31,544 bases of DNA from an uncultured Candidatus Saccharibacteria bacterium (GTDB lineage Bacteria; Patescibacteriota; Minisyncoccia; Minisyncoccales; Staskawiczbacteraceae), in assembly GCA_964650025.1 (NCBI GenBank), contig CAZYSZ010000002.1, positions 1-31,544 on the forward strand, read 5' to 3'. Position 1 is the first letter of the stretch, and every line of letters begins with the position of its first letter. A program made the translations under genes and the position numbers. Shown piece after piece: positions 3,572 to 11,488 of the stretch. The notes under the pieces were generated by a model. That model was not told the DNA's origin. It saw nothing but the letters and a program-made list of their open reading frames with translations, and made no database searches.

Positions 3572-4645
3572 CTACAGGGGCGCGCCCCATTCCTCATCCT
3601 TCTCCATCAAATTTTGCAGGCCTTCGATATTTTCCAGCGCCAATCCGCAACCCCGTACGACTGATGTCAACGGATCATCAATAATTCTACAGGGCATTTT
3701 TGTTTCGTGGGAAATTAAGACATCCAAACCGCACAACAAACTACCTCCGCCGGCCAGATAAATTCCGTTGGTCATTACATCAGCCAAAAGTTCCGGTGGA
3801 GTTTCCTCAATAGTGGTTTTAATGGCAAAAATAATTTGTTTTACGGATCTGTCCAAAGCCCGCTGAATATCATCATTAAACACTACCACCTCTTCGGGCA
3901 AACCCGTCACCAAGTTACGTCCGCGCATGGCAATTTCTTTTCTATCTTTTAATGGCATAGCACTGCCAATATTTATTTTAATCCATTCAGCCGTACGCTC
4001 GCCAATCAATAATTTATATTCTTTTTGCGCAAATTCCACAATATCATTGTTTAATTTGTCTCCCGCTACCCGCAAACTTCGGTAAGCCACAATTCCGCCC
4101 AAAGAAATCACCGCCACCTCCGTTGTTCCTCCGCCGATATCAACAATAAAGTTGCCTCCGGCGTCTTGAATGGGAAGCTTGGCACCAATAGCTGAAGCCA
4201 GCGGTTCTTCAATTAAAAAAACCTGTCTGGCGCCCGCATTTTTTGCCGCGTCGCGCACCGCTTTCCTTTCCACTTCGGTCACTCCGCAAGGAATACCAAT
4301 AATTACCCGCGGCGAATAACCAAAAATCCCGAACTTTCTTTTAGAACCGGCCACCGCTTTTTCAATAAAATATTTGAGCATTTGCTCGGTCACTTCAAAA
4401 TCAGAAATCACGCCATTTACCAAAGGCCGAGTTGCCGTAATATATGAAGGCGTGCGCCCCACCATTTTTTTGGCTTCTTCCCCAATGGCTAAAATTTGGC
4501 CGGTTTTATTATTGACCGCCACCACCGACGGCTCATTGATGATGATTCCCCGGTCTTTGACGTAAACTAAAGAATTGGCCGTCCCCAAGTCAATGGCCAT
4601 ATCCAAGGATAGAAAAGAAAATATTTTTTTGAAAGGATTGTACAT
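3572..4645 (-). CDS. mreB: Rod shape-determining actin-like ATPase MreB (copy 1)
   Basis: AIDLGTAN, EPSVVA, IEEPLASAIGA, VDIGGGTTEVA and LAGGGSLL motifs. Confidence 0.96.
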   Translation of the reverse strand: MYNPFKKIFSFLSLDMAIDLGTANSLVYVKDRGIIINEPSVVAVNNKTGQILAIGEEAKKMVGRTPSYITATRPLVNGVISDFEVTEQMLKYFIEKAVAGSKRKFGIFGYSPRVIIGIPCGVTEVERKAVRDAAKNAGARQVFLIEEPLASAIGAKLPIQDAGGNFIVDIGGGTTEVAVISLGGIVAYRSLRVAGDKLNNDIVEFAQKEYKLLIGERTAEWIKINIGSAMPLKDRKEIAMRGRNLVTGLPEEVVVFNDDIQRALDRSVKQIIFAIKTTIEETPPELLADVMTNGIYLAGGGSLLCGLDVLISHETKMPCRIIDDPLTSVVRGCGLALENIEGLQNLMEKDEEWGAPL

Positions 4646-4782: not shown

Positions 4783-6010
4783 TCACAATCTGGCTTATCT
4801 TCACCATCTTCACCTTGTCTTTACTTCTTTCCTTAACCTCCACTGAATTTGTGGCCAACGTTCTTTCTGAAATTACCACACGGCAAGGAATTCCCAACAA
4901 ATCACTTTCCGCGAATTTCTCGCCCGGATTTTTATTCTGCCTGTCATCGTATAATACTTCAATGTTTTCTTTTTTCAAGTCCTGATACAATTTTTGCGCC
5001 ACTTTGGCAACCTTGGGATTATTTTCCACTTGGATTACATGCACCGAAAACGGCGCCACGCTTTTTGGCCAAATGATTCCCTTGTCGTCGTGACTGGCTT
5101 CCACAATCGCCCCCAACAATCTGCCAAGTCCAATACCATAACACCCCATAATCACCGGTTTTTCGGTGGCGTCTTTATCGGTGAATTTCAAATTAAATGG
5201 CGTTGAAAATTTTGTTCCGAGTTTGAAAATATTTCCTACTTCAACTGCTTTTTTTTCTTCAAACGCCACGCCTTTGCATTTTGGACATGCTGGGTTTTCT
5301 TCTTTTATTTCTTTATTAATTGCAACACCACACTTTTTGCAAATATAAATAATATCTTCGCCGGCCTGGGTCAGCATTTGGAACTCGTCAGAATACTTTG
5401 AAAAACTTCCGCCTGATGCCAAGGTTTGGTAGGTTATTTTACCAATACCACATTCCTTAAAAATCTTCCCGTAGGCTTTCGCTAATTTTTCGTAATACAC
5501 ATCCAAGTCAGCTTGATTGGCATGGAAAGAATATAAATCTTTCATAAAAAATTCCCGTGTTCTTAAAATTCCGGATTTTGCCCGCAACTCATCCCTGAAT
5601 TTATTTTGGATTTGGAATACATACAACGGCAAGTCTCGGTAGGAAAAAACCATTTTCTTTGCAAGCGGAGCCACTACTTCTTCATGGCTCAAAGCTAACG
5701 CGTAATCTTTATCACCCGATCCCTTTAACTTAAAAAGCACGTCTACCGTATCCCACCGATTGGTTTTTTGCCAATTTTCTTTTGGATTGAGCGAAGGCAT
5801 CAACACTTCCTGCCCACCAACAGCTTCCATATTTTTTCTGATAATAGTTTCAATATTTTTAAGCACCCGATACCCCAGCGGCAAAAATGAATACACTCCC
5901 GACATGAGTTGATCCACATACCCCGCGCGCGTCAGCAAATCATGCGAAACCGAATCTGCCTCCGCTGATTTATTTTTGTTGGTTTTGTAAAAAAGTTTTG
6001 ACTGTAACAT
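4760..6010 (-). CDS. proS: Proline--tRNA ligase, short form without the INS editing domain
   Basis: QIQNKFRDELR motif 2, REFFMKDLYSF, MGCYGIGLGR motif 3 and an anticodon-binding domain; 416 aa. Confidence 0.95.
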   Translation of the reverse strand: MLQSKLFYKTNKNKSAEADSVSHDLLTRAGYVDQLMSGVYSFLPLGYRVLKNIETIIRKNMEAVGGQEVLMPSLNPKENWQKTNRWDTVDVLFKLKGSGDKDYALALSHEEVVAPLAKKMVFSYRDLPLYVFQIQNKFRDELRAKSGILRTREFFMKDLYSFHANQADLDVYYEKLAKAYGKIFKECGIGKITYQTLASGGSFSKYSDEFQMLTQAGEDIIYICKKCGVAINKEIKEENPACPKCKGVAFEEKKAVEVGNIFKLGTKFSTPFNLKFTDKDATEKPVIMGCYGIGLGRLLGAIVEASHDDKGIIWPKSVAPFSVHVIQVENNPKVAKVAQKLYQDLKKENIEVLYDDRQNKNPGEKFAESDLLGIPCRVVISERTLATNSVEVKERSKDKVKMVKISQIVKTLNPKS

Positions 6011-7853: not shown

Positions 7854-7934
7854 GAAGCATGGATCATGAAACATGAAACACGAAACAACGACGTCGGCGT
7901 TTGCTTCATGCTCTATGCTTCATGCTTTATGATT
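7851..7934. repeat. Periodic hairpin element, family C (CATG heptamers)
   Basis: catgaag catggat catgaaa catgaaa cacgaaa ... catgctc tatgctt catgctt; related to 19917-19992. Confidence 0.88.
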
Positions 7935-8839
7935 TATATTTCTAATAACAACACCTCCAACGCCAACTTGGCGCTGGCGTTGGTTTGTGAAATTTGCGCG
8001 TGCAAGGTTTCGATTAACCGAATAATATTTTTTAATTTTTCCAGCGTATACGCATTAGTAGATTCGGATGTCATTTGTAGATTGGTGTCGCTATTTATTC
8101 CTAATTTTATTAAAAGCAAATTCCTAAAATATCTCTGTAACACTTTTAAAATCACATCGGCGTTATCCCCCTCCAAGTTAACTTTTTTGGTATAGCCGAA
8201 TTTTTGCGCCAGCTCGCCCTGGATAATCGGCAACAATTCCTGCAACATTTTTTTATCCTGCACAGAAGCCTGATATTTTTCTTTAGGCAAAAACGTCAAA
8301 TATTGGCATCGGGAAAAAATCGTGGGCAGTAAATAATCTGGTTTTGAGGATAATAAGATAATCAACGTGTCGCCTTTGGGTTCTTCCAGGGTTTTTAAAA
8401 AACTGTTTTGGGCTTCCGTATTCATGCGCTCCGCGTTTTCAATCATCACCGCTTTATACTTTCCATAATAAGATTTAAAACTTAAAAAATAATTCACTTG
8501 CCGAATCTGCGCCACATCAATTTCCATCATATCCTTTTCATTTTTCACTGATGAATCGCTATTGATAGACTTTACCACCAACAAATCCGGAAAGGTTTCT
8601 TGGTTAATAAATTTACAACTTTGACACTCATTACAACCATTTTTAAAAGTACCATAAATCTGACGGCCGTCACTTTTATGGGACGCTTGGCAATTGATAA
8701 ATTTTACAAACTCTTTCGTAAACTCCTTTTTCCCCACCCCGTCCTGCCCCGAAAATAAATAAGCATGAGAAAGTTGCCCCGCCAAAAATTTCCCCCGCAA
8801 AAATTCCCAGTTTTTTTCGTGATTAATTTTTTCACTCAT
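7934..8839 (-). CDS. holB: DNA polymerase III delta-prime subunit (clamp loader)
   Basis: HAYLFSGQDGVGK, Cys cluster CQ...CNECQSC, AERMNTEAQNSFLKTLEEP and LLPTIFSRC. Confidence 0.9.
   Translation of the reverse strand: MSEKINHEKNWEFLRGKFLAGQLSHAYLFSGQDGVGKKEFTKEFVKFINCQASHKSDGRQIYGTFKNGCNECQSCKFINQETFPDLLVVKSINSDSSVKNEKDMMEIDVAQIRQVNYFLSFKSYYGKYKAVMIENAERMNTEAQNSFLKTLEEPKGDTLIILLSSKPDYLLPTIFSRCQYLTFLPKEKYQASVQDKKMLQELLPIIQGELAQKFGYTKKVNLEGDNADVILKVLQRYFRNLLLIKLGINSDTNLQMTSESTNAYTLEKLKNIIRLIETLHAQISQTNASAKLALEVLLLEI
8054..8092. repeat. Family D arm in frame inside holB
   Basis: attagtagattcggatgtcatttgtagattggtgtcgct is 34/39 identical to 10321-10359; encodes SDTNLQMTSESTN. Confidence 0.9.
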
Positions 8840-9731
8840 CTTCTTTTAAAAGTTTTCTGCCAACCCATGTATCAAATGTGCCAACCTTAGATAAGTTATA
8901 GAAAACATACGAAGACCCGCCTTTCATCTCTTTACTCTCTCCGCCTTCATTATAGATTAAACCGTCAAATCCTTTTTCCATGAGAAAATATGAAAAGAGA
9001 TCTGGGAACGGCCCCCCAGAAGGAAATTTATTCTCATCTTCAATATACGGGAAAAAATCATTATGGCCCCCGTCCTGTAATAATTGTCTTAAATCTACTT
9101 TTTGGGCATCCAAACATCTATCAAGATGCTGTATATAATCCGGCATCCAATCGCGGTCAAACTCGCCTGAATTTTTCATCTCTTCGTTTACTAACGACCC
9201 TTCTGTTTCAAGCCACTTAATAAATTTCTTTTTCCATTCCAGAATCAACTCTCTTGGCACGGGTGCGTTGGCATTTTGTTCACTTTTATCCCGAAAGTCA
9301 AACATTCTTGCCTGATAGGGATGTATTTTCTCCACTATGGCAGGAGTATTGTCGCCTGGATTTTGCTTTTGCCCATTAGCATAATATGTTCTAACTTTAC
9401 TATAAAGCCTTGCTTCAGATTCTTTATCAGTCACATAAAAACCCGACCCTAAATTTTGGGGCGTATCACCATAGTGATCATAATTTCCTTTTTCATCCAT
9501 CTTGCGTCGGTGGCGCCGGTAATAGTCCATGTTATCCTGAAAATCTATTTTTCTGTGAGTGCCATGAAAAAGCAGATCCGGCGAATTTTCAAAATCCTCC
9601 AAAGTCATTTCCGACGGATCTTTTTCGCCAAGAACCCTAAGCCCCACCGCCTCTCTAATTTCAGACTGCTCCTTTTCTAGTTGAGACTCTTCCGGCAAAT
9701 CCCGACTATTTTGTATTTCACCTTCCGCCAT
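8832..9731 (-). CDS. Putative ADP-ribosyltransferase-fold protein (ART-PolyVal-like)
   Basis: LFHGT ... GSGFYVT...ARLYS ... GFDGLIY ... YVFYN pattern recognised by eye; stop overlaps the holB start (ATGAGTGA). Confidence 0.55.
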   Translation of the reverse strand: MAEGEIQNSRDLPEESQLEKEQSEIREAVGLRVLGEKDPSEMTLEDFENSPDLLFHGTHRKIDFQDNMDYYRRHRRKMDEKGNYDHYGDTPQNLGSGFYVTDKESEARLYSKVRTYYANGQKQNPGDNTPAIVEKIHPYQARMFDFRDKSEQNANAPVPRELILEWKKKFIKWLETEGSLVNEEMKNSGEFDRDWMPDYIQHLDRCLDAQKVDLRQLLQDGGHNDFFPYIEDENKFPSGGPFPDLFSYFLMEKGFDGLIYNEGGESKEMKGGSSYVFYNLSKVGTFDTWVGRKLLKEDE

Positions 9732-9823
9732 AACAATTTAGTTGATTAGTAATTTAAAACTGCCAAGTTTTTTTTCGTGGTCCATGTAAACATCTTAACA
9801 AAGTTAAGGGAGCAATAAAAGAG

Positions 9824-9889
9824 TTGACAAGTAACATAAATGGGGTTATACTTAAGACTAATATCGAAACCCACCCTAACCCTAAGGAG
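9824..9889 (+). promoter_or_regulatory. Sigma70 promoter and SD of an accessory cassette
   Basis: TTGACA (9824)-17 nt-TATACT (9847); TAAGGAG at 9883-9889. Confidence 0.8.
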
Positions 9890-9895
9890 TTTGCT

Positions 9896-10189
9896 ATGAA
9901 CACAATGACGATGGCAATGCTCTTGATTCCTGGCGATGGAATCATGAACGGATTCTGCTACAACTACTCCAAGGCACTTCTTGAAAAACTCAAAGAGCTA
10001 CGTGAGAAAAAGCGCCTTTTCAAACCAGGCCCAGGAGGTTGCACGACAACAATCGCCGAAGCAGTGATTCGCCAACTTGGAAATCAGGGAGGATTCTCCA
10101 TTGCGCCACGCACCAACGATGACAAGGACGTGGTTGAACTAATCCAGGCCACTGAAGAGTTCCTTAGTATATTCAAAAAGGAAGATTAG
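9896..10189 (+). CDS. Hypothetical 97 aa protein (start revised to the ATG after the SD)
   Basis: In frame with ORF 9824..10189; bounded by promoter, SD and terminator. Confidence 0.7.
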   Translation: MNTMTMAMLLIPGDGIMNGFCYNYSKALLEKLKELREKKRLFKPGPGGCTTTIAEAVIRQLGNQGGFSIAPRTNDDKDVVELIQATEEFLSIFKKED

Positions 10190-10200
10190 TGGCAGAGAAT

Positions 10201-10236
10201 AAAAAAGCCCGCGGACATCAGTTCGCGGGCTATTTT
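10201..10236. terminator. Intrinsic terminator of the cassette
   Basis: aaaaaa-gcccgcg...cgcgggc-tatttt. Confidence 0.75.
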
Positions 10237-10253
10237 CTTACACACCATTACTT

Positions 10254-10287
10254 AGATTGCCGCGTCGCTTCGGCTCCTCGCAATGAC
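10254..10287. repeat. Half copy of a widespread palindromic repeat type (GAGATTGC...CTCGCAATGAC; RPE/REP-like)
   Basis: agattgccgcgtcgcttcggctcctcgcaatgac; family assignment from recall, single copy in the window. Confidence 0.55.
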
Positions 10288-10288
10288 G

Positions 10289-10320
10289 AAAAAAGGCGCG
10301 CCCGCGGGCGCGCCTTTTTT
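10289..10320. terminator. 32-bp perfect palindrome, likely the mreB2 terminator
   Basis: aaaaaaggcgcgcccg|cgggcgcgcctttttt. Confidence 0.75.
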
Positions 10321-10359
10321 ATTCGTAGATTCGAATGTGATTAGTAGATTGGTGTCGCC
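10321..10359. repeat. Family D single arm
   Basis: 37/39 identical to the reverse complement of 12758-12796; abuts the mreB2 stop. Confidence 0.9.
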
Positions 10360-11367
10360 TTATTTTTTCGACATAACAACTTTTTTATACTCCTCCAAAT
10401 GCTCTAAAACAATCCCCGTTCCTCGGATTACACAAAACAATGGCTCATCGGCGATAAAACAGGGCACGCCGGTTGATTGCGCCACCAGTTCGTTGATTTT
10501 TGGAAGCAGTGCTCCTCCGCCGGCCATAATGATGCCTTTGTTCATGATGTCGGCGGAAAGTTCCGGCGGAGTTTCGGATAATACGTGTTTGGCGGCTTGG
10601 ATAATTTCGGCCAAGACATCGGAAATGGCTTCGCAGACTTCGTTGTTGGAAATTTTAATATTTCTTGGCAAACCCAAAATCATGTCCCTGCCCTGAATTT
10701 CCATAAATCGCAGTTCTTTTTGTGGCAGAGCCGTGCCCACTTTTATCTTTATTTCTTCAGCACTTTGCGTACCAATTGCCAAATTATATTTTTTCTTAAT
10801 GTACTCGGCAATCGCGGTATCAATTTTATCGCCCGCCACCCTTACAGAATGGGCCGTCACAATTCCGCCCAAAGAAATAACTGCCACTTCCGACGTGCCA
10901 CCGCCAATATCAATAATCATATGACCGCTGGATGAGTTTATAGGAATACCCGCGCCAATGGCGGCTAAAATCGGCTCTTTGGCCACAAAGGCTTGGCGCG
11001 CTCCGGCCGACATGGCGGCTTCAATTACCGCCCGCCTTTCGGTGGAAGTAATTCCCGCCGGTACCGAAATCACTAATTCTGGTTTTAAAAATTTAAAATT
11101 GCTGGAAGTTTTTTTGATAAAATGGCGCATCATCGCCTGGGTGACCTTGTAATCAGCAATCACGCCGTCTTTTAACGGCCGATACACCTTAATATCCGCA
11201 GGTGTGCGCCCGATCATTTCCTTGGCCTGCTCCCCCACCGCCAAAATTTTATTGTCAGACAAAGACACCGCCACCACAGACGGTTCGTTTAAAACGATCC
11301 CCTTACCCCTAACATAGACCAGGGAGTTACAAGTTCCAAGGTCAATGGCGATACGATTGTTGAACAT
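10360..11367 (-). CDS. mreB: MreB/Mbl paralog (copy 2; start revised to MFNNRIAIDLG)
   Basis: AIDLGTCN, EPSVVA, KEPILAAIGA, IDIGGGTSEVA and MAGGGALL. Confidence 0.95.
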   Translation of the reverse strand: MFNNRIAIDLGTCNSLVYVRGKGIVLNEPSVVAVSLSDNKILAVGEQAKEMIGRTPADIKVYRPLKDGVIADYKVTQAMMRHFIKKTSSNFKFLKPELVISVPAGITSTERRAVIEAAMSAGARQAFVAKEPILAAIGAGIPINSSSGHMIIDIGGGTSEVAVISLGGIVTAHSVRVAGDKIDTAIAEYIKKKYNLAIGTQSAEEIKIKVGTALPQKELRFMEIQGRDMILGLPRNIKISNNEVCEAISDVLAEIIQAAKHVLSETPPELSADIMNKGIIMAGGGALLPKINELVAQSTGVPCFIADEPLFCVIRGTGIVLEHLEEYKKVVMSKK

Positions 11368-11375
11368 GCTAACGA

Positions 11376-11488
11376 AATTTTTAATTTCCAATTTTTAATT
11401 TTTAAATAATTTCTAAATTTTCAAATGTTTAAAAATTAGCACATTAAAAAATTATTTAAAAATTACAAAATTAAAAATTGGAAAAATT
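11376..11488. repeat. AT-only periodic hairpin between murA and mreB2
   Basis: ttccaatttttaatttt...aaataatt pairs with aattattt...aaaattaaaaattggaa. Confidence 0.7.

Follow-up and report, generated by a model that had tools for sequence, protein, structure and literature searches.

A divergent ART-PolyVal-like gene at the 5' end of holB in a Patescibacteria genome

How does an accessory gene come to stand at the head of an essential operon, and what might its product do there? The question is raised by a stretch of 31,544 nucleotides from an uncultured Candidatus Saccharibacteria bacterium (contig CAZYSZ010000002.1; hereafter the window), in which a gene encoding a protein of 299 amino acids (aa), P0001, directly precedes holB. 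The window reads like a Patescibacteria (candidate phyla radiation, CPR) chromosome and belongs to an assembly of 0.72 Mb that is 93.6% complete. An initial annotation, made from the letters alone, had described the gene as an ADP-ribosyltransferase (ART)-fold conflict or effector enzyme embedded in an essential operon, possibly paired with a small divergent gene or with nearby Nudix enzymes. The answer favoured here, with somewhat better than even confidence, is that P0001 is a divergent H-Y-D enzyme resembling the ART-PolyVal/Tox-ART-HYD2 group, laterally acquired and spliced into the 5' end of holB, which likely transfers a single ADP-ribose to a specific target. The principal features are as follows.

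8832-9731, minus strand: ART-PolyVal-like open reading frame (ORF) encoding P0001, 299 aa, frame open throughout
7934-8839, minus strand: holB (DNA polymerase III delta', PF13177), of which codons 1-6 (MSEKIN, 8822-8839) appear to derive from the inserted piece
8832-8839, minus strand: ATGAGTGA, the 8-nt overlap of the ART stop (TGA, 8834-8832) and the holB start (ATG, 8839-8837)

Fold and catalytic residues of P0001

The ORF is real and contains all of the motifs originally listed for it, namely FHGT (residues 55-58), GSGFYVT (95-101), ARLY (107-110), GFDGLIY (254-260) and SYVFY (274-278). Homologues of P0001 number 33 in 90% clusters, or 141 cluster representatives at 50% identity, and all are unnamed. 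Eleven residues are invariant in the 33 (H56, G57, G95, G97, Y99, A107, D256, G257, E262, F277 and N279), and the motifs are not a product of chance.

The AlphaFold2 (AF2) model of P0001, built on the family alignment (pLDDT 80.8, pTM 0.81), is formed of one N-terminal strand and six core strands (54-58, 98-101, 132-138, 141-148, 257-261 and 273-277), with a helical insert of ~90 residues (~160-252) between strands 4 and 5. When the model is compared with 48,161 PDB chains using VIA-align, which works independently of Foldseek, the top 13 matches are all ART folds (Z 5.2-9.4) and include gp27 of cyanophage A4 (Z 9.4), MbcT (6.6), diphtheria toxin (6.4) and AcrIF11 (6.0), together with SAIP, three diphtheria-toxin homologues, NatT, ParT, exotoxin A and tankyrase. 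Foldseek, one of the checks that the initial annotation had named, returns ART folds for the first 33 of 33 PDB matches, mostly tankyrase or MbcT, though these are weak. Among the AFDB clusters it finds an 'ART-PolyVal-like domain-containing protein' (E 4.7e-7) as well as RES clusters, and in BFVD it finds phage proteins of ~1,000 aa (E from 1.8e-5 and weaker) that carry the names ART-PolyVal-like, PolyVal ADP-ribosyltransferase, LT_GEWL and large-polyvalent-protein-associated. A structure search of the ESM Atlas returned ART-PolyVal+LPD22, DUF3990 and RES clusters, whilst in a language-model search ART-PolyVal accounts for 37 of the 100 nearest clusters, with AcrIF11 clusters also among them. 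The original call of an ART fold is borne out by these matches, and both the fold and the affinity of the modelled protein to the ART-PolyVal group are well supported by lines that are partly independent.

Searches with sequence profiles point in the same direction at lower scores. When the 33 homologues are scanned singly against Pfam, 18 match PF18760 (ART-PolyVal), 17 match PF13151 (DUF3990), three match PARP (E 0.018 or weaker) and three match RES, all below threshold; these four, all of the ADP-ribosyl clan, are the only families matched by more than one homologue. P0001 on its own scores 9.6 bits (E=2) against PF18760, for which the gathering threshold is 31.2 bits. For DUF3990, with a threshold of 32.2 bits, the best member is P0084 (29.6 bits, E 6.5e-7) and P0001 gives no match. 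Querying the PDB by sequence, whether with the whole of P0001, either half of it or the family profile, brought up no ART match, and nothing usable came from NCBIfam, PHROGs or PADLOC, where the sole repeated match was phrog_4700 (function unknown) over the HG..GFY half.

The ART domain of polyvalent proteins is characterised by a His in strand 1, a Tyr in strand 2 and an Asp in strand 5, and has been grouped with Tox-ART-HYD2 (Iyer et al. 2017, PMC5512222). P0001 has this set of residues: in the model H56 belongs to strand 54-58 and Y99 to strand 98-101, whilst D256 immediately precedes strand 257-261 (GLIYN). The predicted triad is encoded at 9564-9566, 9435-9437 and 8964-8966, respectively. 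Across 123 domain rows the conservation is 98% for H56, 99% for Y99, 98% for D256 and 100% for G257, and these residues align with the LYHGT, GSGTYFS and GVDAL motifs of A4 gp27 and, at the last position, with GYEGL in paralogues from congeners. His occupies the strand-1 position and Asp the head of strand 5 in 121 of the 123 rows each, so that the sets used by PARP and diphtheria toxin (H-Y-E, with a Glu heading strand 5) and by RES/MbcT (Arg-Glu-Ser, with the Arg in strand 1) are not found here.

The initial annotation had drawn attention to a Glu missing from the last strand. This is true of GGSSYVFY, where position 277 is hydrophobic (F/I/V/L) throughout the 123 rows, but it is irrelevant because the clade is of the H-Y-D type and the predicted catalytic acid, D256 of GFDGLIY, sits in strand 5 rather than in the GGSSYVFY strand. 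Two near-invariant acids are found just upstream of that strand, D256 and E262 (FDGLIYNEGGE), the latter encoded at 8946-8948 and conserved in 98% of the rows. Both E262, in a YNE context as in PARP1, and F277, from an alignment to the SVEYI of diphtheria toxin, were considered for the third catalytic position and dropped in favour of D256. This residue is preferred because it agrees with the numbering of strands in the model and with the H-Y-D definition in the literature, and because gp27 retains the Asp but does not have the NEGGE loop. We read E262 as a family-specific loop residue that is absent from gp27.

A separate observation concerns two congeners that harbour a paralogous ART-like family of ~250 aa at another locus (L021:985-1743 and L022:1051-1791), recognisable by YHGS, GSGIYFTS and GYEGLITFEGGEG. 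The strand-5 acid is Glu in these proteins, not Asp, and in one of the two congeners the gene lies just upstream of enolase. With GYEGL in the paralogues, the acid is thus kept as either D or E.

The structural searches also bring into consideration an enzyme that degrades NAD+, either a glycohydrolase or a RES/MbcT-like phosphorylase, which would act by NAD+ depletion, for example in abortive infection. MbcT is the second-best PDB match (Z 6.6), RES clusters appear in both the Atlas and AFDB searches, and the RES profile is weakly matched by three of the 33 members. However, RES enzymes rely on an Arg (in strand 1), a Glu and a Ser, whereas in this family a His and a Tyr are invariant. No antitoxin-like partner, as is normally needed by an NAD-depleting toxin, is conserved in 20 loci of the family, and a cell would scarcely tolerate having such a toxin expressed constitutively along with holB. 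Such an activity is consequently considered unlikely for P0001.

Relatives and distribution of the family

The best solved structure among the matches to the P0001 model is a domain of gp27 from cyanophage A4 (A-4L), residues ~1390-1650, in PDB entry 9K3A chain B (Z 9.4 over 160 residues). Residues 944-1600 of this chain represent gp27 of Anabaena phage A-4L, where it belongs to the outer pre-ejectosome layer. The domain shares the motifs LYHGT, GSGTYFS, LP..R..D and GVDAL with P0001 and has a helical insert at the same place, but it forms part of a 1717-aa virion protein that is packed in the capsid, and it is without the NEGGE loop. The best structural relative of P0001 is therefore a domain carried inside a phage capsid, which fits the polyvalent-protein idea. 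An hhalign comparison of the family profile with the single gp27 sequence was weak (E 0.018), misplaced the HG motif and was set aside; only one homologue of gp27 was found. Within gp27 itself (gene at L035:20116-25269, product P0169), residues ~1300-1650 appear to comprise a ParB-like stretch followed by the ART-PolyVal-like domain, which is annotated neither in PMC12002296 nor by Pfam.

With ART-PolyVal (PF18760) and Tox-ART-HYD2 as described in PMC5512222, P0001 has in common the ART fold and the positions of the His, Tyr and Asp, and this group supplies its top matches in AFDB, BFVD and the Atlas. The domain of P0001 is also found inside giant multidomain proteins. It differs in falling below the Pfam threshold, in its ~90-residue helical insert and in the conserved NEGGE loop that follows strand 5. 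The family is also found as a standalone chromosomal protein of ~250 aa in Patescibacteria. A tblastn search of 50,697 phage records gave no match for P0001 and marginal matches for just two relatives, and a scan of IMG/VR gave no match.

AcrIF11 (PDB 6KYF, PF26151) is likewise a small standalone ART of the H-Y-D type, and matches the P0001 model with a Z of 6.0 over 128/137 residues. It is the closest relative with known biochemistry, and its activity is Asp-dependent (D115, or D146/E147 in a second homologue). A variable helical region, at the place where P0001 has its ~90-residue insert, was proposed by the authors of that work to be involved in target recognition. AcrIF11 is non-toxic as it is target-specific and needs no immunity gene. 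In contrast to P0001 it is about half the size and resides on phages and plasmids next to aca genes, rather than in a chromosomal housekeeping operon, and PF26151 yields no HMM match. DUF3990 (PF13151), known from Rhs toxin tips and from DUF3990-DUF3791 pairs, is a structural neighbour that 17 of the 33 homologues match weakly over the HG...GFY half. These matches remain below threshold, and P0001 has neither DUF3791 nor an immunity partner, nor any Rhs or secretion context. The relatives of P0001 are the ART domains of phage polyvalent and ejection proteins, DUF3990 and AcrIF11.

The gene is rare. It is single-copy in this genome; among 24 congeners there are two weak matches, both of which are the paralogue at another locus, and there is no match in 16 other families of the order. 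A further 400 Patescibacteria species gave one weak match. In 185,579 species genomes 16 loci were detected, of which 10 carry the labels of Patescibacteria lineages, five that of 'uncultured Gammaproteobacteria' and one just 'bacterium'. The nearest homologue of P0001 is ~44% identical. The gene is a rare, patchy and laterally acquired accessory gene.

Copies of the domain also occur within long proteins of 1,333-7,292 aa, alongside FHA, GGDEF-like, VanY or DUF294 domains. The single genomic context inspected has a chromosomal appearance, and the searches turned up no viral contig. Six of these proteins (P0088, P0100, P0121, P0126, P0136 and P0151) reach 3,599-7,292 aa, and P0100 adjoins a protein of 6,610 aa with a weak HD match. 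These giants may be cellular analogues of phage polyvalent proteins. They also bear on the suggestion that P0001 modifies a small molecule, in the manner of the H-Y-D rifampin transferase Arr, and acts as a resistance enzyme. P0001 is an ART of the H-Y-D type that stands alone and lacks an immunity gene, and Arr is among the structural matches (Z 4.1). Arr nevertheless ranks far below the ARTs that modify proteins or nucleic acids, and a domain that also occurs inside multidomain proteins of 3,600-7,300 aa is unfit for a role in antibiotic resistance, which makes this suggestion highly improbable.

Insertion at the start of holB

In the window the local order is mreB, class II aminoacyl-tRNA synthetase (aaRS), rseP, frr, holB, the ART-like gene, a small divergent ORF, a second mreB and murA, followed by Nudix and DUF218 genes. 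In five congeners the order is murA-mreB-holB-frr-rseP-aaRS-mreB, with holB directly after mreB, and the mreB-holB interval contains no homologue of the ART gene or of P0002, the product of the small divergent ORF. The proposed embedding in an essential operon is thus upheld, since an accessory ART gene lies inside the holB operon here and the five congeners are without it. The features that mark the event are listed below.

8822-9755, minus strand: proposed inserted piece, 934 bp, comprising a 24-nt leader, the ART ORF and 18 nt now encoding MSEKIN
9786-9830, minus strand: ancestral holB promoter block, with a TTGTCAACTCTTTTATTGC box at 9812-9830 and an extended -10 TGTTAAGAT at 9792-9800, 6 nt before the ancestral ATG
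9738-9785, minus strand: remnant ORF of 15 codons (MDHEKKLGSFKLLIN, then stop), running from the ancestral holB ATG and stopping 6 nt before the ART ATG
9756-9779, minus strand: direct repeat, left decayed copy, a remnant of the ancestral holB 5' end
8799-8821, minus strand: direct repeat, right copy (CACGAAAAAAACTGGGAATTTTT), 23 nt corresponding to holB codons 7-14

Upstream of holB in four congeners there is a conserved box, TTGTCAAC(T/C)CTTTTATTGC, followed by an extended -10 (TGnTA..AT) and, 6-8 nt further on, the ATG. A promoter block, an old ATG and codons located upstream of the ART gene align with these four holB starts, the homology ending at ~9756. The promoter and the decayed copy of the first holB codons next to it together span 9756-9830. 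Downstream of the ART gene, holB now begins MSEKIN-HEKNWEFL. The two copies of the imperfect 23-nt direct repeat are 957 nt apart, and their alignment score was reached by 5 of 2000 shuffles. The stop of the ART gene overlaps the ATG of holB, as had originally been noted, both being contained in ATGAGTGA.

The simplest reading of the flanking repeat, the stub and the congener synteny is that a 934-bp piece holding the ART ORF alone entered the ancestral holB behind about its tenth codon, duplicating ~23 nt. The upstream copy of the holB start would subsequently have decayed into the 15-codon stub, leaving the native promoter and old ATG upstream, whilst the start of holB would have been rebuilt so as to overlap the ART stop. 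The native holB promoter is then predicted to transcribe the stub, the ART gene and holB in turn, with a gap of 6 nt followed by an overlap of 8 nt. The holB-frr-rseP operon would hence have the ART gene as its first full cistron, and the expression of holB would have to pass through this gene. Translation of the ART gene and holB is probably coupled, as suggested by the 6-nt/8-nt geometry and by the lack of a Shine-Dalgarno (SD) sequence before the ART gene.

A chimeric assembly was considered as a source of this arrangement and ruled out, as Logan contigs from three runs in two studies cover 8516-10318 and bridge both junctions with 0 differences and no alternative joint, although the DNA of the window may itself have come from these matching samples, which are thus not independent of it. 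A fourth run, from another study of a hot spring, contains an identical piece of 166 bp over the ART start and promoter. In three runs the summed contig depth rises from ~10-22x to 170-1200x at 10254-10358, with many loose ends, which is the mark of a short, highly dispersed repeat located between the terminator of P0002 and the mreB end. The two mreB paralogues (3572-4645 and 10360-11391) are ~48% identical and flank the holB-frr-rseP-aaRS block, a layout kept in all five congeners examined.

That the insert might be a passenger without activity, either a pseudoenzyme with an ART fold or an ORF in decay that is kept only because holB depends on read-through, is quite unlikely. P0001 is the most divergent member of its family (≤44% identity) and carries two inserts of its own (residues 72-83 and 116-123) that are poorly modelled; one homologue, at L018, is frameshifted. 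Yet all of the family-invariant residues are retained in P0001 and the frame is open over 299 codons, and the dependence of holB would require transcription rather than an intact ORF of 900 nt. The frameshifted member (L018:4992-5728) is split near 5333-5336 and represents either a pseudogene or a sequencing error.

Candidate partners and probable activity

The divergent gene reported next to P0001 is present and has its own promoter, SD sequence and terminator.

9896-10189, plus strand: orphan 97-aa ORF, P0002, with a promoter at 9824-9852 and a terminator at 10206-10231

The promoter is TTGACA-17-TATACT (11/12 matches) and the SD sequence AAGGAG. Its -35 TTGACA, at 9824-9830 on the plus strand of the window, is the reverse complement of part of the TTGTCAAC box on the minus strand, such that the two promoters stand back to back. 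P0002 is a real-looking, separate and strain-specific gene. No relative of it was found among 5.8 billion proteins, at any fetched homologue locus or in the Atlas. Among the five congeners the mreB-holB spacer varies from ~120 to 1,100 bp; here it holds P0002, and in the congener G006 (L032:5328-5852) it holds an unrelated ORF of 174 aa. The spacer looks like a hot spot for small insertions.

A toxin-immunity pair, in which the 97-aa protein is the antidote, is very doubtful. The two genes are adjacent and divergent with a common back-to-back promoter region, and ARTs of the related DUF3990 group are found alongside DUF3791 and, accompanied by immunity genes, at the tips of Rhs toxins (PMC4524185). 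Against this, P0002 has no homologue anywhere searched, the 19 other loci are without any small gene that is related or keeps a consistent position, and P0002 lies beyond the native holB promoter DNA, which separates it from the ART insert, so it arrived separately. The pairing was accordingly rejected.

The gene-neighbourhood analysis that the initial annotation had called for thus yielded no partner. No gene family recurs near the family members in 20 loci, except for the synteny of two Daviesbacteria, and the small ORFs that adjoin them are unrelated to one another. The conserved adjacent antitoxin that typifies type II toxin-antitoxin systems such as DarTG, ParST, MbcTA and NatRT is absent, as there is no shared neighbour in these loci and P0002 is an orphan. 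A link to the Nudix enzymes fared no better and was rejected: the Nudix gene is 3.2 kb from the ART gene, past two core genes, it is found next to murA in the congener G006, which is without the ART gene, and no Nudix gene recurs near the homologues. Of the original conflict or effector proposal, the ART fold and the accessory position hold, and the effector role is plausible.

In the favoured reading P0001 is probably an active, target-specific mono-ADP-ribosyltransferase. H56 and Y99 would bind NAD+, and D256 at the head of strand 5 would promote the transfer of a single ADP-ribose, as opposed to a polymer, to a specific macromolecular target. The helical insert of ~90 residues is the likely target-recognition part. 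The chemistry is therefore expected to be NAD-dependent, the modification mono rather than poly and the target specific rather than general.

Several points weigh against this reading. The Foldseek matches in the PDB are weak (best E 0.2, TM ≤0.44), no member of the family reaches the gathering score of any ART Pfam family (best ~25 bits against 31.2), and a PF18760 search of 301 Patescibacteria genomes at 1e-5 gave 0 matches. The clustering of H56, Y99 and D256 in space is deduced from the order of the strands in the model, and E262, whose conservation in the family equals that of D256, could be the actual catalytic acid. No SD sequence precedes the ART ORF, so its translation is a prediction, and the genome is without a recognisable macrodomain or ARH eraser.

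A more speculative proposal, and a very unlikely one, is that the insertion was no neutral accident and acts as a retention device, whereby a single-ORF mobile cassette inside the first codons of holB took over a leaderless-type promoter and supplied a new start, so that an essential replication gene came to depend on read-through of the cassette. The ART might then act on the replisome of its own or of a partner cell, and the domain in the proteins of 3,600-7,300 aa would be the episymbionts' cellular counterpart of phage polyvalent effectors, used on their hosts.

Neither the family link nor the operon capture overturns current understanding. What the analysis provides is a fold and a testable triad (H56, Y99, D256) for an unannotated family of ~140 sequence clusters, and a link between this family and the ART domains carried in phage virions, among them one in the solved A4 ejection protein that lacked annotation. 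In addition, it records at base resolution a single foreign ORF that appears to have been spliced into the beginning of an essential gene without destroying that gene's function, and thereby offers a clear natural case of operon capture in a genome of 0.72 Mb.

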